DNA from: Candidatus Omnitrophota bacterium
GTDB taxonomy: Bacteria > Omnitrophota > Gorgyraeia > Zapsychrales > JAHFFX01
DNA length: 34,157 nucleotides
Assembly: GCA_023247755.1 (NCBI GenBank)
Contig: JAHFFX010000003.1
Location: forward strand, 1-34,157
Reading direction: 5' to 3'
A program made the translations under genes and the position numbers. Positions within the stretch are counted from its first letter, which is position 1; each line of letters begins with the position of its first letter. The notes under the pieces were generated by a model that worked only from the letters and a program-made list of their open reading frames with translations, searched no databases and was not told the DNA's origin. Of the stretch, positions 7,416 through 32,297 are shown one piece after another.

Positions 7416-7433
7416 GGGAAATTTTTCTTAAAC

Positions 7434-7582
7434 GAGGGACGTTGGACGTCCGCGCGACCCCGCCGTTGGCGGGGTCGCGCTCAGACGTAGGACGTAAGAA
7501 ATTGAACGTCGCTACATTCGACAACTCACGTCCGACGTCCCAGCGAACGAAGCGAGCGGACGTCACACGTCCAACGTCCTTC
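7434..7582. repeat. Gene-less inverted heptamer-array element (unit GGACGTN / NACGTCC) between mreC and mreD
   Basis: Left GGACGTT GGACGTC [insert] AGACGTA GGACGTA; right CACGTCC GACGTCC [insert] GACGTCA CACGTCC AACGTCC; outer ends 7434-7449 and 7567-7582 are 15/16 inverted matches. Confidence 0.85.
7452..7480. repeat. Perfect 13-bp GC-rich palindrome GCGCGACCCCGCC-GTT-GGCGGGGTCGCGC (REP-like) inside the heptamer array
   Basis: Arms 7452-7464 and 7468-7480 are exact reverse complements; TC occurs on both sides (7449-7450 and 7481-7482). Confidence 0.85.
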
Positions 7583-14461: not shown

Positions 14462-17332
14462 TCATCTTACATAAGAGGCGGCCTTTATATTAACGATACA
14501 GCGGTCGCACAAAGCGGGGTGCTCTTGGTCCTTGCCGACGTAGGTGCTGTAATTCCAGCAGCGGCTGCATTTTTCGCCGGCGGCGGGGTGGACCTGGATC
14601 TCCAGCTGCGGGAAAGCTTCCCCAACAGGGCTGGAGACCGACTTGACTTCTTCTATATTGACCTGCGAAACGATAAAAAAGAACGGCAGAAATTTTTCGT
14701 GTTTGGAAAGCTCTTTGGCGTCGCGCGCCGAGGCGGTCCTAAACACCACCCGCGCCTCCAGTCCCCCGCCGATCTTTTCGGCACGCCGCAACTCGTCCAG
14801 GGCCTTCATCACGTACGGCCGCAGTTCGATGAGGTATTTCAACTCCGCGTGGCCGTCCATCGATTTCCAGGCATCCAGGGCCGGCAGCCATGGCAGAAGA
14901 TGTACGCTTTCAACAGCTTTCATGCTGGCGTCCTTGGCCATCGCCTGGAACACTTCTTCGGCGGTAAAGCTCAGGATCGGGGCGATCGCCCGCACCAGCC
15001 AATTCAAAATAAAGTAAAGAGCGGTCTGCGCACTGCGCCTTGCGGGTGAATTAGCCGCAGAAGTATACAGTCTGTCTTTTAAGATGTCAAGATAAATGGC
15101 GGACAGGTCGTCGTTGCAGAACGAATAAATGCTTTTGAAGGCCTTTTCGAAATCATACCGCTCGTAGCTCTTCCCCACCAGGTCGATCGTCCAGCCCAAA
15201 CGCTCCAGGGCCCAGCGGTCCAGCAGGTCCAGGCGCTCGAAAGGCAGCGCATGGCGCTCGGGATCAAAACCATCGAGGTTGCCCAATATATAGCGGAAGG
15301 TGTTGCGGATCTTGCGGTAGGCGTCCACCAGCCGGTCCAGGATCTCCTTGGAGATGCGGACATCTTCGTTGTAGCTGCTGGAGGCGACCCAAAGCCTGAG
15401 GATCTCCGCGCCGCTCTGATTGATGATGTCCTGCGGGGCGATGACGTTCCCAAGGGACTTCGACATCTTGCGGCCCGCGCCGTCGACGACAAATCCGTGC
15501 GTGAGCACGGCCCGGTACGGCGGAGCGCCCTCGATCGCCATCGACGGGATGATCGAAGACTGGAACCACCCGCGGTGCTGGTCAGAGCCTTCCAGATAAA
15601 GGTCCGCCGGCAGCGGCCGTTTCATATGGGACTTGAAGACCGCCTGGTGGCTGACGCCGGAATCGAACCACACATCAAGAATGTCGTGGGTCTTCTGGAA
15701 ATCGTTTTTGCCGCAGTCCTTGCATTTGAATCCCGGCGGCAGCAGATCCTTCAAATCCTTCTTAAACCAAACATCGCTCCCCTCTTTCCGGACGAGGTCG
15801 GCGTAATGTTCAATGACCTCCACAAACAATTTATGTTCCCCTTTACATCCGCCGCAGGAAAGCGCGGGGATCGGCACACCCCACAGCCGCTGGCGGGATA
15901 AACACCAGTCGGGACGGGTCGCCAGCATCCCCAGCATGCGCTCTTTGCCGGAAGCAGGGATCCAGGCGACCTCTTCGACGGACTTTTTGAGCTTTTCCCG
16001 TAATCCGTCTTTGTCCACCGCCAGGAACCATTGTTCCGTCGCGCGGAAGATGATCGGCTTCTTGCAGCGCCAACAATGCGGATAGGAATGGCTGATGTTC
16101 TCCTGAGCGAACAAAATTCCCCGGGAATTCAGATCCTCGATGATCTTTTCATTGGCTTTGAAAACATATTGACCGGCATAAGGCCCGGCCGCCTCGGTAT
16201 AAACGCCCTTATCGTTGACAGGCATGAGGACTTCGAGACCGTATTTCAATCCCGTCTTAAAATCATCCTGCCCGTGCCCGGGTGCGGTATGAACCAAACC
16301 TGTGCCGTCTTCTTTGGAGACATAATCTGCCATTACAACTCTGCAATTCTGCCTAAGATCAAAAGGATGTTTATAAGTCAACTTCGTTAAGAGATTACCG
16401 TCGACTTCTACGAGCGGCTTTTTGAATTCCGATATGCCCCCCTTGGCCAAAACACTTTGAGCTAATGAGCTTTCTAAAATTAGAATCTCCGAGCCCACAT
16501 CGAAGAAGCCATATGAGTAAGAAGCAATCAAAGCTGGGCGGTTGACATCTTGTTGTTCATAAAGCAAGGGATGAACCGCCACTGCGACATTCGCCAAAAG
16601 AGTCCATGGCGTCGTTGTCCAAATTAAAAGTGAAACGGGTTTGCCCAACGGTAACTCTTTAAAAACTTCAGGATTATTCACCCTGAACTTCACATACACC
16701 GATGGAGAGGTGTGGTTCTCGTATTCCACTTCCGCTTCCGCAAGTGCGGTCTCATCATTCGGGCACCAATTGACCGGCTTTAACCCGCGATAAATGTAAT
16801 CTTTCTTGCGCAGTTGTGCCAAAGATTTCAGGATCCAATGCTCGTAATCCGGCGCAAGCGTCAGATACGGGTTCTCCCAATCGCCGAGAACGCCCAGCCG
16901 CTTGAACTCTTCCCTTTGGATACCGACGAACTTCATCGCGTATTCGTGGGCCTTTTTTCGGAAATCAACGACGTCCACTTTGGATTTATCGGTCTTGAGG
17001 TCCTTGAACATCTGATGCTCGATGGGAAGGCCGTGGCAGTCCCACCCCGGGACGTACTCCGCATCGAGCCCTTGCATGGAACGGAACTTGACGATCATGT
17101 CCTTGAGAATTTTATTGAGGGCGTGGCCGATATGGATGTGGCCGTTGGCGTACGGCGGCCCGTCGTGCAGGATGAAGGCGGGTTTGCCTTTGGACTTGGC
17201 GCGGATCTTCTGGTACAGCTTGAGCTCCTCCCATTGCTTAAGGAGTTGCGGCTCGCGCTGCACCAGATTCGCTTTCATCGCGAAATCGGTCTTGGGGAGA
17301 TTGAGCGTATGTTGATACTTGTTGTCAGACAT
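14462..17332 (-). CDS. ileS: Isoleucyl-tRNA synthetase (type 1)
   Basis: [58 protein letters not shown]-terminal Zn finger CSRC..CDRC. Confidence 0.97.
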
Positions 17333-17344
17333 TTTATTCTTGGG

Positions 17345-17420
17345 GGACCCAGTTACCCAGCGACCCAGCGTCCCAGTAAATGCTTTTCCTGGGTTACTGG
17401 GTCTCTGGGGTCCTGGGACG
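17345..17420. repeat. Gene-less inverted octamer-array element (4x NNNCCCAG, 12-nt spacer, 4x CTGGGNNN) between mtnP and ileS
   Basis: GGACCCAG TTACCCAG CGACCCAG CGTCCCAG - TAAATGCTTTTC - CTGGGTTA CTGGGTCT CTGGGGTC CTGGGACG. Confidence 0.9.
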
Positions 17421-17430
17421 CCCTTCAGTT

Positions 17431-18291
17431 TTATTTCAAATACTTCCCAATGATCATCTGCAAATCCTTCTTCGCCTCTTCCGGCATGTGGTCCTTGGGG
17501 GTGATGATGGCGTACTTGAGCGCGTCGGCGGCGCTGAAGCCCGACAGCTGCCCGATGCGCGGGATGGCCTTCTTGAGGACTTGCCTGGAGTTCTCGACAT
17601 TCTTGTTGAGGTTGGCGATGATCATCTCAACGGTGACCGATTCGTGGGACGGATGCCAGCAGTCATAATCGGTGACGGCCGCGAGCGTGGCGTAGGAGAT
17701 CTCCGCTTCGCGCGCCAGCTTGGCCTCCACCATGTTGGTCATACCGATGATGTCCATTCCCCAGCTGCGGTAAAGGTTCGATTCGGCCTTCGTCGAGAAT
17801 TGCGGGCCCTCCATGTTGATGTACGTGCCCTTGGGATGGACCCGCACCCCCAATTCCCGGCAGCTGTCCACCAGGATCGCAGCGATCTCGGGACTCACCG
17901 GATCGGCAAGCGAAACGTGCGCCACGATGCCGTTGTCAAAAAAAGTGCTCGGCCGCGCCTGATGCGTGCGGTCGACGAACTGGTCCGGCACGACGAAATC
18001 CATGGGCGCAAGCTCATCTTTGAGACTGCCGCAGGCCGACACCGAAACGATCGCCTCCACGCCGAGCTTCTTCATGCCGAAGATGTTCGCCCGGAAATTG
18101 ATCTTGGAAGGGGAAATGGTGTGGTAGTGGCCGTGCCGGGGAAGGAAGACCACCTCGATGCCTTCCAGCGTTCCCAATTGGAACTTATCCGAGGTCAGTC
18201 CGAACGGGGTGCCGATGGCGACCGCATCCTGCTTTTCCAGACCTTCGATGTTGTAAAGACCGCTTCCGCCGATGATGCCGACCTTGGCCAT
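17431..18291 (-). CDS. mtnP: S-methyl-5'-thioadenosine phosphorylase (MTAP / PNP family 2)
   Basis: GIIGGSG, PRHG, SACGSL, EGPQFST, GMT, TDYDCW; true start ATG 18291 after GAGGAGG (the ORF-track extension reads through the repeat). Confidence 0.93.
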
Positions 18292-18314
18292 AGCTACCTC
18301 CTCAGATGAGAATG

Positions 18315-18388
18315 GGTGACCAGTGACCAGGTCATCCGTCACAAGTTACCGGAAAACCGCTGGTGACCGTTGACTGGTCACGGGTCAC
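18315..18388. repeat. Gene-less inverted heptamer-array element (unit GTGACCA / TGGTCAC); inverted empty copy of the element at 19195-19690
   Basis: GTGACCA GTGACCA G GTCATCC GTCACAA GT - spacer - TGGTGAC CGTTGAC TGGTCAC GGGTCAC; contains the proC stop codon. Confidence 0.9.
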
Positions 18389-19173
18389 TGCTTTGACAAC
18401 TCTTCTGCGCGCTTGCGCGCCGCCTGCAGCGCTTCCGCGATAATATCGTCGAGCTTATACTTGATGAATACGTCCGTGGCGGCCTGGGTGGTCCCGCCCT
18501 TGGAGGTGACCTTCGCGCGCAAAGCACCGGGCTCTTCCTTTTTCCGGTCGAGCAAGAGAACCCCGCCCAGGAACGTTTTACGCACCAGCTGCCGCGCCAG
18601 GTTCTCGTCCAGCCCCAGCTTTTTGGCGCCGCTGATGAGGCTTTCCATGAAAAGATAGACGTACGCGGGCCCGCTGCCGGAGACCGCGGTGACCGCATCG
18701 ATAAGATCTTCCGGAACGACCACGGTTTCGCCGACATGCTGGAAGATCTTCATGGCCGCATCGAGATCCCCTCTTTTGGCGAAGCGTCCCGCCGCCAGCG
18801 CCGTCATGCCTTCGCCGATCATGGCGGGCATGTTGGGCATGGTGCGGACCACCCGGGTCTTTTCGGGAAGACTTTTTTCAAGGAACCCGGAAGTGATCCC
18901 GGCCGCGATCGATACGACGAGCTTGGTCTTGTCCACGAGAAAGAACATCTCCTGCAGGGCCTCTTCGACGTCCTGGGGCTTGACGGCAATAATGACCACC
19001 TGGGATTGTTCGACGAGCTCTTTAACGCTGCAGGGTTTCAGCTTGTAGGTCTTCTGAAGATATTGCTGACGCGCGGGATCCTTCTCGCTCACCAGGACCT
19101 TGTAATTCTTGCGGATCCGCTGGAGGATCGCTTCCCCCATGTTCCCGCCGCCGATGATACCGATGGTTGTCAT
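18385..19173 (-). CDS. proC: Pyrroline-5-carboxylate reductase
   Basis: IGGGNMGEA, IIAVKPQ, SIAAG, RTMPN, TAVSGSGPAY, VTSKGGTT. Confidence 0.96.
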   Translation of the reverse strand: MTTIGIIGGGNMGEAILQRIRKNYKVLVSEKDPARQQYLQKTYKLKPCSVKELVEQSQVVIIAVKPQDVEEALQEMFFLVDKTKLVVSIAAGITSGFLEKSLPEKTRVVRTMPNMPAMIGEGMTALAAGRFAKRGDLDAAMKIFQHVGETVVVPEDLIDAVTAVSGSGPAYVYLFMESLISGAKKLGLDENLARQLVRKTFLGGVLLLDRKKEEPGALRAKVTSKGGTTQAATDVFIKYKLDDIIAEALQAARKRAEELSKQ

Positions 19174-19194
19174 GTGGTTGTTCCTTTTGTCAAG

Positions 19195-19223
19195 GTGCCC
19201 CGTGACCAGTCACAAGTGACCAG
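19195..19223. repeat. Heptamer array at the 3' end of the four-helix-bundle gene
   Basis: GTGCCCC GTGACCA GTCACAA GTGACCA G, directly abutting the TAA stop. Confidence 0.9.
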
Positions 19224-19583
19224 TTAATTCGAAGAAAAACTTTTATGAAATTTCCAAAGCAATGCGCCGGTTTCTGTTCTTATCGCTTCTAATTCTTCGT
19301 AAATCTCACGGCTGATATACTCTAACTTAAAACAAAACTCGAGCAAGTATTCGACCTCTCTCAGTGATCCTAATGCAATGTTAGAAAACTGTTTGATTTC
19401 ATTTCTATTCTGCCGGCCGATACCCTCAACGATATTGGTGGGGATGGAAATTGCCGCTCGGCGAAGTTGTGAAGTCAACCCGTACATTTCTTCTCTAGGA
19501 AAACTTCGGGTGGATAAATAGATTTTATACGCCAGTTGATCTGCTTTTTGCCAAGCCATTAGATTTTTATACGCCTTTTCCAT
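19224..19583 (-). CDS. Four helix bundle protein (23S rRNA-IVP family, PF05635/TIGR02436-like; bAvd-related fold)
   Basis: YKNLMAWQKA...FPREEMYGLTSQLRRAAISIPTNIVEG...IALGSLREVEY signature; AGGAG RBS. Confidence 0.93.
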   Translation of the reverse strand: MEKAYKNLMAWQKADQLAYKIYLSTRSFPREEMYGLTSQLRRAAISIPTNIVEGIGRQNRNEIKQFSNIALGSLREVEYLLEFCFKLEYISREIYEELEAIRTETGALLWKFHKSFSSN

Positions 19584-19658
19584 TTCCTTATCTCCTGGTT
19601 ATGGTTTCCTGTTAATAATTCAGGAAAAGGGTAGTTTTTCCTCCTTTTAACACCTACG

Positions 19659-19690
19659 ACTTGTGACTGGTGACTTGGTCACTGGTCACC
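19659..19690. repeat. Heptamer array upstream of the four-helix-bundle gene
   Basis: AC TTGTGAC TGGTGAC T TGGTCAC TGGTCAC C; ends 7 nt from the yggS stop. Confidence 0.9.
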
Positions 19691-19697
19691 AATCGGA

Positions 19698-20390
19698 TTA
19701 CTCTTTAAAGATCGCCGTCCCGATCCGTACCATGTTGGCGCCTTCGGCGATCGCGATCTCAAAATCATGGGACATCCCCATGGAAAGGTACTTCATTTGG
19801 ACGCCGGGCTTGTCCGGAAAGCTGCGCTCGATGTTTTCTTTCAACCGGCGCAGATCGCCAAAGCATGCCGAGATAACTTTTGCATCCTCGGTAAAAGGGG
19901 CCATCGCCATGAGTCCCAGGATCCTCACCTTCGGCAACTTCAGGACCTCTCCGATGAGCGGCAGGGCCTCTTCGGGAGCGATACCGTACTTTTGGGTCTC
20001 GCGGGCCGTGTTGACCTGCATTAAGATATCCGCAACGCGCCCGGCTTGGGCCGCCTGGCGTTCGATCTCGCCCGCCAGCTTTAGCGAATCAACGGATTGG
20101 ATCAGGTCGCAGATATTCAGGGCAGCCTTGACCTTGTTGGTCTGCAAATGCCCGATCAGATGACGAGTGAGCTTCCGACCGGCTGGATTAACCAGCGGGA
20201 ATTTCTTTTGGGCTTCCTGGACCCGGTTCTCGGCGATATCGTTGATCCCCGCGGCGACCGCCTGATCGATATCTTCGATCGAGGCGAATTTGGTAACGCC
20301 TACCAGGGTAATCTCTTCGGGATGTCTTCCGGCTTTGGGGCAAATGGCGGCGATACGGTCCCGAATTCTCGCCACATTGTCGCGAATCAT
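19698..20390 (-). CDS. yggS: Pyridoxal phosphate homeostasis protein YggS/PROSC
   Basis: LVGVTK, ENRVQE, HLIGHLQTNK, GLMAM, LSMGMSHDFEIAIAEGANMVRIGTAIF; start is either ATG 20396 or ATG 20390. Confidence 0.95.
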   Translation of the reverse strand: MIRDNVARIRDRIAAICPKAGRHPEEITLVGVTKFASIEDIDQAVAAGINDIAENRVQEAQKKFPLVNPAGRKLTRHLIGHLQTNKVKAALNICDLIQSVDSLKLAGEIERQAAQAGRVADILMQVNTARETQKYGIAPEEALPLIGEVLKLPKVRILGLMAMAPFTEDAKVISACFGDLRRLKENIERSFPDKPGVQMKYLSMGMSHDFEIAIAEGANMVRIGTAIFKE

Positions 20391-20396
20391 TGCCAT

Positions 20397-20425
20397 AAGC
20401 TATCACAAAAGGTTGGGGGCGTCAA
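20397..20425 (-). promoter_or_regulatory. Promoter of the yggS...ileS operon, probably giving a leaderless yggS mRNA
   Basis: TTGACG (20425-20420)-N17-TAGCTT (20402-20397) with extended TGn; ATG 20390 lies 7 nt downstream and has no SD. Confidence 0.55.
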
Positions 20426-20447
20426 TCCTTCGACTGCGCTCCGGATT
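20424..20447. repeat. REP-like imperfect palindrome AATCCTTCGACTGCGCTCCGGATT
   Basis: AATCC/GGATT ends; the reverse strand reads ATCCGGAGCGCAGTCGAAGGAT, resembling recalled CCTGAGC-N3-GTCGAAGG type REP units. Single copy in the window. Confidence 0.45.
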
Positions 20448-20538
20448 GTTCTTCTGCATGTCGTTCCCCGCAGGGCACGCTGAAGTTGCCGCTTCTTTCA
20501 ACAAAAAATGGTGCGGGTCATCCCGCCCCAGATAGATA

Positions 20539-20566
20539 TTGACATCCGCCATGGGGGGAATAAAAT
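20539..20566 (+). promoter_or_regulatory. Sigma70-type promoter of the regulator-Ehr operon
   Basis: TTGACA-N16-TAAAAT, 49 nt upstream of ATG 20616. Confidence 0.6.
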
Positions 20567-20615
20567 ACAAAGACGTTTTCCCTAAAATTGGATTTTCCCC
20601 CAAAAAAACAATACG

Positions 20616-21299
20616 ATGAACTTAAAGATCAGGGATATTGCCGAATTGCTGCAAGTCTCGGAGCAGACCGTCTATCGCTGGATCCAGGAAAAAAAGATCC
20701 CCGCCTACAAGATCAATCATCAGTACCGCTTTAACAAGCTCGAGATCAACGATTGGATCCTGAAGAACCGCCTGGCCGTTTCGAAAAGAATCTACGACTT
20801 CAGCGCCGCCGGAACACCCGTCAGCCTCACGGACCTCCTGAAAAAAGGGGGCATTTTTTACGACAACGGTGGATCTTCGGTCGCAGAAATCATCCGCAAT
20901 GCCGGGGAGACGCTTCCCTTGCCGCCGGGCGCCGACCGAAAGACCGTGATTTACTCCCTCTTGCAGCGGGAGGAGATGATGCCCACCGCCATCGGTCGTG
21001 GGATCGCCATCCCGCATCCCCGCAACCCCCTTATCGCGGACATCGAGCATGAAAGCGTTTCGATTTTCTTGTTAAGAAATAAAATCGATTACAAAGCAAT
21101 CGACGGTGAACCGGTCCACACGCTCTTCATCGTGCTAAGCGCCAACCCGCAACGCCATCTAGAAGCCCTGGCCAAGATCTCCTTTTTGTGCCAACAAGAC
21201 GACTTCATCGGCCTTTTAAGAAAACCGGCGTTAGCAGAAGAAATTCTCGGTTATATCGAAAAAAAAGAAGCGGCCTGGCTTAAGAAAGACCCGAGATGA
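20616..21299 (+). CDS. Excisionase-type HTH + PTS EIIA (Ntr/Fru-type) fusion regulator
   Basis: IRDIAELLQVSEQTVYRW..IPAYKI..QYRF HTH_17-like domain; EIIA domain with RE..PTAIGRGIAIPHPR phospho-His motif. Confidence 0.9.
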   Translation: MNLKIRDIAELLQVSEQTVYRWIQEKKIPAYKINHQYRFNKLEINDWILKNRLAVSKRIYDFSAAGTPVSLTDLLKKGGIFYDNGGSSVAEIIRNAGETLPLPPGADRKTVIYSLLQREEMMPTAIGRGIAIPHPRNPLIADIEHESVSIFLLRNKIDYKAIDGEPVHTLFIVLSANPQRHLEALAKISFLCQQDDFIGLLRKPALAEEILGYIEKKEAAWLKKDPR

Positions 21300-31436: not shown

Positions 31437-32297
31437 TTATTTGCCGGGCATTAGTTCGAGCTGCTTGACGAGTTTTTCGAACTCGAACACGAGGGGGTGT
31501 CGCCAGCGTTTTCTGGCGATCTTGAGGACCTCCTTCTTGAACCATAGTTCCTTTTCCTTGCCGGCGGGGAGCCGCTGCCAGACGGCGGAACCTTCCTTCA
31601 AATATTGCCCCAGGATGGAATTGATCAAAGATATCTTTTCGGCCACGGTAATCACGACGGCCTCCACATCGCTGGCCCGCAGCGTCTCGAGGTGCCGGCG
31701 TTTGCGTTCTTCCCAGGCCTCCCCGGAAAGGGCATCCGAATCATCGGTGATCGTCTCCACGAGACTGAGCGCGTCGGGGCCACAGGCCTGTTCGATCTCA
31801 TTGGGACGGCAAGTGGTCTGATTGAGCAACGCGTGGCACAAGGACGCCGCGATGATCTCGTCCTTGAGGCTGAAATCCAGATGGGCCTTGCGCAGGATAT
31901 TGGCCACCTCCAGCGCATGCTCGAGAAAGGAGCGGCCGTTCACCCGCAGGACCTGCTCCTTGTGATAGTTGACGGCCAAGTAAAGCGCATATTCGGTCAT
32001 CGGGTTGAACACGGTGCTCACCCGGAAGATCTCGCGCCCGTCGGGATTGAAGATCAGATACTCGTAACCGCCTTCCGTGGCCTGTTTGAGCCACTCGTTG
32101 TAGGAAAGCTTGACCTTCGTGATGTTGTTGTTCTTCTTGAACTCGTAAATGGCGAACACCAGCAGGTCCGCCAGGTCACTGCCCTCGCGGATGATCACGC
32201 TTTTTTCCTGCGGAAAGCTCTCAAGGTTGGGGTCGATATCCTGCAGATCGACCTGGACCAGGGAATAAGACGCGCCTGTCTCCCGGCTATTTGACAT
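31437..32297 (-). CDS. Protein with an unknown N-terminal domain and a degenerate Mesh1/SAH-like HD domain
   Basis: ALYLAVNYHKEQ..NGRSFLEHALEVANIL..IIAASLCHALLNQT..LVETITDD..WEERKRRHLE; start ATG 32297 overlaps the upstream gene. Confidence 0.75.
   Translation of the reverse strand: MSNSRETGASYSLVQVDLQDIDPNLESFPQEKSVIIREGSDLADLLVFAIYEFKKNNNITKVKLSYNEWLKQATEGGYEYLIFNPDGREIFRVSTVFNPMTEYALYLAVNYHKEQVLRVNGRSFLEHALEVANILRKAHLDFSLKDEIIAASLCHALLNQTTCRPNEIEQACGPDALSLVETITDDSDALSGEAWEERKRRHLETLRASDVEAVVITVAEKISLINSILGQYLKEGSAVWQRLPAGKEKELWFKKEVLKIARKRWRHPLVFEFEKLVKQLELMPGK

Follow-up and report, generated by a model that had tools for sequence, protein, structure and literature searches.

Among the systems closest to the locus described here are the IVSs of 23S rRNA (Coxiella burnetii helix 45, Leptospira, Salmonella and others), in which terminal inverted repeats pair as a long stem and an ORF of the IVP/S23p family (PF05635) occupies its loop; they are excised by RNase III and are treated as selfish, horizontally acquired elements. 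As described in the part of PMC4990558 drawn on here, the C. burnetii IVS has a 28-bp terminal stem and, at its 5' end ahead of the S23p ORF, tandem GACAGAT heptamers in 2-3 copies, the first of which is the place where RNase III cuts. Also comparable are cyanobacterial STRR and other bacterial heptanucleotide repeats, which are short intergenic tandem arrays of 7-nt units, often just upstream of start codons and in several unit families per genome; REP and BIME sequences, which are short extragenic palindromes, many per genome, often located between operon genes and transcribed as hairpins; and MITEs, in which many short gene-less copies accompany a rare gene-bearing copy with similar ends. 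The TAACTGA heptanucleotide repeats of Beggiatoaceae are direct and, in the portion of PMC4679880 drawn on here, are linked to no IVP gene; according to the same portion, a Beggiatoa genome holds 169 direct sets and one indirect set. The anatomy of the gene-bearing cassette described below is partly in print already for rRNA IVSs, to the extent of the published text drawn on here, and literature searches, supplementary files aside, found no paper in which IVP genes are connected with both inverted heptamer arrays and gene-less operon copies.

The window analysed here, a stretch of 34,157 nucleotides, consists of bases 1-34157 of contig C184 of a 91%-complete genome assembly (2.42 Mb, 232 contigs). 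It contains a gene-less hairpin, here called E, one gene away from a cassette that bears an IVP gene. The features of the locus are as follows.

14462-17332, minus strand: ileS
17346-17417, no strand assigned: second gene-less hairpin, of CCCAG-type units, in the mtnP-ileS gap
17431-18291, minus strand: mtnP-like phosphorylase (PF01048), downstream of E, with its ATG at 18289-18291, a start codon picked through alignment to relatives
18297-18303, minus strand: mtnP ribosome-binding site, GAGGAGG
18310-18392, plus strand: the whole of E in the orientation of its family (91.0 bits with covariance model R1, 65.5 bits with a leave-one-out profile)
18312-18390, no strand assigned: E, a gene-less hairpin of 79 bases made of 7-base repeats, between proC and mtnP
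18312-18346, no strand assigned: left half of E, with units GTGAC, GTGAC / GTCAT, GTCAC, a small palindrome by itself
18347-18359, no strand assigned: loop sequence of E, TACCGGAAAACCG, which forms part of the motif GTTAC[CG]GGAAAAY shared by loops of the family (alignment A1, seven members)
18360-18390, no strand assigned: right half of E, with units GTGAC, TTGAC / GTCAC, GTCAC, the last of which carries the proC stop codon
18385-19173, minus strand: proC, pyrroline-5-carboxylate reductase (PF14748 and PF03807), between E and the cassette
19193-19693, minus strand: IVP cassette, between yggS and proC
19193-19227, minus strand: 3' arm of the cassette (profile positions 43-79, 24.0 bits)
19224-19583, minus strand: IVP gene, encoding a 119-aa four-helix-bundle protein (23S_rRNA_IVP / TIGR02436; PF05635, E-value 5.2e-35)
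19655-19693, minus strand: 5' arm of the cassette in gene orientation, with units GTGAC, GTGAC / GTCAC, GTCAC (profile positions 2-39, 29.0 bits)
19698-20396, minus strand: yggS

The genes around E (yggS, the IVP gene, proC, the mtnP-like gene and ileS) are on the minus strand throughout, and E sits entirely between the proC stop codon and the mtnP ribosome-binding site. Because the CCCAG-type hairpin (repeat pairs I3 and I12; -51.4 kcal/mol, z -6.33) occupies the mtnP-ileS gap as well, all four gaps of the yggS-ileS row hold array arms; units of its type also flank an IVP gene on contig C194. Divergent from yggS and upstream of it, positions 20616-21299 of the plus strand encode a 227-aa protein in which an excisionase-type HTH_17 domain is fused to PTS EIIA-2. 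A repeat search of the window returned two inverted pairs joining E to the cassette, I1 (18312-18346 with 19659-19693; 35 nt, 31/35, 89% complementary) and I2 (18360-18388 with 19195-19223; 29 nt, 24/29, 83%), and these contain the reverse-complement matches of 29/32 and 24/29 claimed by a first-pass annotation of the window. The unit GTGACCAGTGACCAG, sought as a doublet with at most three mismatches, occurs eight times in the window, always within 18316-18388, 19195-19223 or 19660-19689; 100 shuffles gave a mean of 0.46 and never reached eight. That annotation also correctly placed the proC stop codon (18385-18387) inside the repeat, within the last unit, GGGTCAC at 18382-18388. An independently assembled Logan contig of 990 nt, from a run that is probably the source sample and not independent data, covers 17697-18686 with 0 differences, and E is therefore not an artefact of MAG assembly, an explanation that the annotation had itself put forward for checking.

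Each arm of E contains four units of 7 nt, giving the tandem direct repeats that define STRR-type sequences, and its two inverted arrays of ~7-nt units are able to pair into one stem. Folding predictions for the minus-strand RNA give an imperfect ~30-bp hairpin (-40.1 kcal/mol, z -5.24), and that of the plus strand has the same predicted energy (-40.1 kcal/mol, z -4.03). E would not act as an intrinsic terminator, as no terminator-like site, in which a T/U run follows a GC-rich hairpin, was found on either strand of 18305-18395. The Rfam search gave no match at E and no rRNA match within 17000-20700; a mir-221 match (E-value 0.61) on the CCCAG hairpin was judged to be due to chance.

E belongs with six other gene-less copies, named after their contigs (C107, C221, C151, C14, C77 and C178), and with the single gene-bearing cassette. 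The gene-less copies are ~75-95 nt long, with two GTGAC units followed by two GTCAC units in each half, and with a purine-rich, GGAAAAC-like loop that reads GTTAC[CG]GGAAAA in E, C107 and C77 and varies in the remaining four. When a profile is trained on the six copies other than E, E reaches 65.5 bits with it on the plus strand (34.5 on the minus strand), and in this leave-one-out comparison (range 60.2-81.2 bits) E outscores two of the six training copies. With a profile for which all seven copies served as the training set, the copies reach 60-81 bits, as against 47 for one plain hairpin and at most 36 for ~30 generic GTGAC hairpins. The first-pass annotation had described E as a gene-less relative of a repeat-armed four-helix-bundle cassette and as inverted with respect to it, and both descriptions are borne out. 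The cassette has the same unit and arm architecture as E (two GTGAC and two GTCAC in both), and its two ends match the profile with 29.0 and 24.0 bits. On the minus strand, which encodes the IVP, the two scores thus add up to 53.0 bits, versus 42.6 (23.2 and 19.4) on the plus strand, whereas E scores 76.4 on the plus strand. Because each arm is palindromic, the right arm can be read almost equally well as a direct or as an inverted match (alignment scores of 33 and 33), and the orientation is decided only by the summed profile scores.

The relationship of E to this particular cassette is looser than had been proposed. The best genome-wide match of the left arm is indeed an end of the cassette (31/35, the next matches being 27-28/35), but the right arm (31 nt, compared genome-wide) matches the cassette at 24/31, less well than it matches C107 (26/31) or C221 and C151 (25/31 each). 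When gaps are allowed, E and the cassette are 31/37 identical on the left and 26/31 on the right, values within the range of the eight family members, other pairs of which give 32/35 (C107-C77), 30/37 (cassette-C107) and 28/32 (E-C178). On these alignments E does not appear clearly closer to the cassette than to the other copies, and the proposal that it represents both ends of the neighbouring cassette fails on the right arm and on the gapped identities. Nor is it supported that the 13 nt of its loop replaced a cargo, as had been suggested: they are a loop that recurs in the family and that could not be derived from the cassette interior. The 1-nt register slip that the annotation took as common to E and the cassette is real and marks the centre of the GTGAC,GTGAC / GTCAC,GTCAC palindrome, but it is present in all seven gene-less members and is not private to these two. 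The annotation's caution that other arrays might match equally well is justified for the right arm and not for the left, which matches best with the cassette, and what is shared extends to an architecture beyond the unit. Judged from these comparisons, the likeness of E and the cassette is more than that of a shared unit and reflects a shared architecture specific to this genome. An argument that the arms are conserved beyond complementarity was dropped, as complementarity of a copy to its own opposite arm (71-82%) is about equal to the identity of the same half between copies (74-83%).

The specificity of this architecture emerges from covariance model R1, built from the seven gene-less copies (23 pairs in their consensus fold) and searched against 151 of the 168 genomes of the order, this genome included. 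Eight matches in this genome score 68.9-95.1 bits and later ones at most 53.4; the eighth, at C107:11541-11616, is by sequence a plain hairpin and not a double palindrome. Nothing in the 150 other genomes exceeds 52 bits. Some GTGAC-type hairpin is present in 48 of the 151 genomes, this one included, and the 13 best foreign matches of R1, all of which were inspected (nine of GTCAC type and four with other units), lack double-palindrome arms and are plain hairpins with one unit orientation per arm. Within this sample of sequences, double-palindrome arms are a derived character common to the cassette and the seven gene-less copies of this genome, and their sharing is the strongest evidence that the gene-less copies and the cassette constitute one propagating family.

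ProC of the window is 46-64% identical to that of 40 relatives (the closest at 64% in genomes and 57% in metagenome contigs), a distance too great for comparison at strain level. The order yggS-proC-mtnP(-ileS) recurs in 27 of 29 relatives, the other two loci (L020 and L022) ending before yggS. In all seven genomes of the same family the proC-mtnP gap measures 2-24 nt, with the mtnP ribosome-binding site usually inside the last proC codons, and none of the seven has an IVP gene at this locus; among the 29 loci examined, none of the 27 that reach yggS has an IVP gene between yggS and proC. Thus E and the cassette are both insertions, and the orthologous site of E is without the insertion in 7/7 same-family genomes. 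Arrays that abut stop codons are to be expected, since it is only by landing in such tiny gaps that an insertion leaves both genes intact. From their sequences, the same gaps are used independently in relatives by other hairpins and cassettes: hairpins with other units occupy them in at least 9 of the 29 relatives (L002, L004, L005, L007, L008, L010, L020, L025 and L027); a plain GTGAC hairpin in the proC-mtnP gap of L020 overlaps the CAG-TGA end of proC; and at L024:2262-2722 (genome G028) the proC-mtnP gap is occupied by a complete IVP cassette that has GAAATNN arms and encodes an IVP of 129 aa (PF05635, E-value 1.5e-21), its left array extending over the proC stop codon as well as the start of the IVP gene. 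In L015 and L016, proC ends in CAGTGA and the array is absent. The Logan contigs of two groundwater runs from one study, which as contigs cannot show rare variants, contain no inversion. No RNA run was found to contain the stretch. A joint from 19223 to 19669 with 32 inserted letters, considered as an excision product, turned out to be the loop of the paralogous copy on C151. Two further joints, 18291 to 18392 (side 30) and 19170 to 19763 (side 22), have 85% likeness and are too short to use; they may come from related organisms without E or the cassette.

Arrays of this general kind are abundant. The genome contains 239 period-7 arrays, versus 14 after block shuffling; for 69 of them a reverse-complement array follows downstream, in 60 cases within 100 nt. 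All six IVP genes of the genome are bordered by inverted ~7-nt arrays, the unit being a different one for each gene (GTGAC, CCCAG, CGTG, GGACG, GCTGCTAA and AGGGC). The 38 loci of GTGAC type comprise 36 gene-less ones (E counted) and the two arms of the cassette, and they are clustered, with eight neighbour pairs at most 3 kb apart, one of which is formed by the cassette's own two arms, versus 1.45 on average and never more than 6 when the loci were placed at random 2000 times. For at least five classes of hairpin unit (TTAACAC, TAGCGTA, AATGNCA, TTTGGAA and ATGAGCT) the 91%-complete assembly contains no arm-matched IVP gene, which argues against a strict need for a resident cognate IVP. Across the order, homologues of the window's IVP occur in 72 of 168 genomes, and GT[CG]AC-type arms accompany 8 of 16 homologues at 59% identity or more versus 0 of 17 below, in a count where related genomes are not independent and a few flanks are cut by contig ends or start-codon choice.

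Some further observations concern arrays of other classes. Positions 7432-7580 of the window form a compound GGACGT-type hairpin in a 170-nt gap between two minus-strand ORFs, and the same type of unit flanks an IVP gene on C134. A motif resembling GGGTTTSCCKGYAATTCAAT is found just inside arrays of differing unit classes (C151:~31940-31970, C194:~35430-35500 and C7:~2950-2975), namely in a GTGAC-type loop on C151, with CCCAG-type arrays on C7, and twice in the 5' flank of the IVP gene on C194, which hints at shared inner modules with exchangeable arms. A search for the motif CCTGYAATTCA with one mismatch was discarded, most of its 84 matches being noise and only four adjoining arrays.

The IVP protein of the cassette matches TIGR02436 ('four helix bundle protein') with an E-value of 2.6e-32, has a weak, distant likeness to Avd, and has solved relatives in PDB entries 2gsc (E-value 4.5e-18) and 2rld (E-value 7.5e-9), each with five chains; no enzyme family in Pfam or NCBIfam matched this 119-aa helical bundle. 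As in the rRNA IVSs, its ORF lies in the loop of a long stem, the 3' and 5' arms of the cassette being paired in both the MFE and the centroid fold of 19180-19705, with the 3' arm overlapping the last codon and the stop of the gene. E, with its 13-nt loop, encloses no ORF. The cassette and E differ from IVSs in being located between protein-coding genes and not in a 23S rRNA helix (9, 25 or 45), and in having whole arrays of four units on both sides as arms. The first-pass annotation had characterised the relationship between them as MITE-like without any transposase, and the latter part agrees with the searches made, which covered the Y1 transposase and reverse transcriptase: the search for the former (PF01797), positive in 6 of 14 control genomes, had 0 matches in this 91%-complete assembly, and no reverse transcriptase (RVT_1) was found in the genome.

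The rRNA IVSs are excised by RNase III, whereas canonical RNase III (PF14622) was found neither in this genome (0 matches) nor in 28 of the 30 other relatives searched, so that 2 of 31 have it; most of the 31 genomes are at least 90% complete, and 8 of 14 control genomes were positive. The order may have undergone a lineage-wide loss of rnc, and the processing route known for rRNA IVSs is doubtful in this lineage. The only match to PF00636, at 22.9 bits, lies in a 957-aa open frame that runs to a contig end (C197:2056-4929, minus strand) and combines weak RNase III-like segments with hydrophobic stretches; to judge by these features, it may encode an unusual membrane-associated relative of RNase III.

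Because E is inverted with respect to the cassette, like halves of the two face each other. The computed duplexes between the cassette arms (a1, a2) and the arms of E (e1, e2) reach -52.2 kcal/mol for a1 with e2 and -43.2 kcal/mol for a2 with e1, and the local duplexes are weaker (-34.8 kcal/mol for a1 with a2, -39.0 kcal/mol for e1 with e2); co-transcriptional folding should nevertheless favour the local stems. The longest exact DNA identity between the inverted arms is 15 nt, which is short for RecA-dependent inversion.

We consider it probable that E is a gene-less member of a hairpin family found only here among the genomes searched, and that E and the cassette were inserted after the split from the sampled relatives. 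The yggS-ileS row is probably transcribed as one operon, in which E would fold as a ~30-bp hairpin between two cistrons, and the copies would have arisen from a common template, not by local slippage. An origin in situ, in which a seed at the proC end (...CAGTGAC) was multiplied by slippage, became palindromic under selection for a hairpin and resembles other loci by convergence, could draw on the status of heptanucleotide repeats as the commonest slippage-prone class in many bacteria (stated in the part of PMC4679880 drawn on here), on the CAGTGA ends of proC in L015 and L016, where no array follows, and on the varying number of units between copies. Seven dispersed loci, however, share a four-unit arm order, a 1-nt offset and a related loop (60-81 bits), compared with at most 36 bits for generic GTGAC hairpins, one plain hairpin at 47 excepted, and slippage does not predict the shared loop; this origin, already disfavoured, is highly improbable. 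In another reading, that of the first-pass annotation, E is a deletion derivative of the cassette, which kept the ends, exchanged the cargo for 13 nt and landed inverted beyond proC. The distance is 0.8 kb (1.3 kb between the matching outer arms), and by rough arithmetic the chance that one of seven copies in 2.42 Mb lies within 2 kb of the cassette is ~1%; the left arm finds its best genome-wide match in the far end of the cassette (31/35 vs 27-28/35), and the inverted orientation is favoured by ~10 bits. Yet three other copies surpass the cassette as matches to the right arm, gapped alignments place the cassette equally near C107 (30/37) and E (31/37), and the loop, which could not be derived from the inner flanks of the cassette, is that of the family (C107, C77). 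Since the right arm, the closeness of C107 and the loop all point to the family, a gene-less template is the more likely source of E, and a deletion derivative is distinctly unlikely. Local spread in the vicinity of the cassette would be a more probable origin of E than loss of the cargo by deletion.

It is also conceivable that the hairpins came first, being made or tolerated by the host as RNA or DNA structures between cistrons, and that the IVP gene is a cargo that landed in their loops, in which case E would be an unoccupied hairpin. The 60 inverted array pairs with gaps of at most 100 nt far outnumber the six IVP genes, several unit classes exist without any IVP, IVSs replace helix tetraloops with an extended stem-loop (in the portion of PMC4990558 drawn on here), and with canonical RNase III missing from 29 of 31 genomes long hairpins in mRNA could accumulate unharmed. 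This order of events is harder to reconcile with the finding that IVP sequence and arm unit go together across the order, with the arrival of a gene and its arms together at a new site (L024), which is easier if they move as one unit, and with the double-palindrome arms common to the cassette and the seven copies and not seen in the foreign matches inspected. We therefore regard it as unlikely, and retain the reading of E as a gene-less member of a family that includes the cassette.

How such a family might propagate can be approached by analogy. Like MITEs, it includes many short gene-less copies and a rare gene-bearing copy with similar ends, and it is intergenic, present in either orientation and patchy among relatives. 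In contrast to MITEs, the only gene of the cassette encodes a 119-aa PF05635 protein and not a transposase of a known class; no target-site duplication is visible by eye at E (flanks GAATGG and TGCTTTG) or at the cassette; and the ends, instead of being unique terminal inverted repeats, are arrays with an internal period. The hairpins resemble REP and BIME sequences in being short, extragenic and numerous, but differ from BIME-RAYT systems in that Y1_Tnp was not found in the assembly, that the arms are arrays of 7-nt units, and that the associated gene encodes a four-helix bundle inside the element and not a transposase flanked by REPs. They share the short intergenic 7-nt arrays of STRRs and of Beggiatoaceae but, unlike those direct arrays, form inverted pairs that fold as hairpins and are tied here to IVP genes. 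By analogy with a MITE and its parent element, the IVP protein might recognise arrays of its own unit type and so act as an element-encoded factor that lets gene-less copies spread in trans, a possible but doubtful role.

A wider proposal, which is unlikely as matters stand, is that IVP proteins in general are sequence-specific readers of their own 7-nt unit, small non-enzymatic adaptors for which the five chains in each entry of the solved relatives may be set against 4-5 units per arm, and that cassettes and hairpins together represent a new mobile or copy-amplified class of element. Such a class would colonise intercistronic gaps and the tips of rRNA helices, and where RNase III is absent, as in this order, mRNAs would retain its hairpins; cyanobacterial STRRs and other 'orphan' heptamer repeats would be its footprints; and a host gene flanked by an oppositely oriented pair, such as E with the cassette, could be enclosed by a long-range RNA stem of the a1 with e2 kind.

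For genome annotation, the 2.4 Mb of this genome include ~60 such hairpins in gaps between genes, where they can provide a stop codon or shift a ribosome-binding site out of place; the apparent absence of RNase III from most of the order bears on their tolerance. A cassette with its gene and a copy without one, only 0.8 kb from each other and with an architecture found only here among the genomes searched, come close to the minimum evidence for one propagating family. The function of the IVP family (PF05635/TIGR02436) and the origin of heptanucleotide repeats are two long-standing puzzles without a mechanism, and this locus links the unexplained heptamer repeats to the small protein family PF05635.
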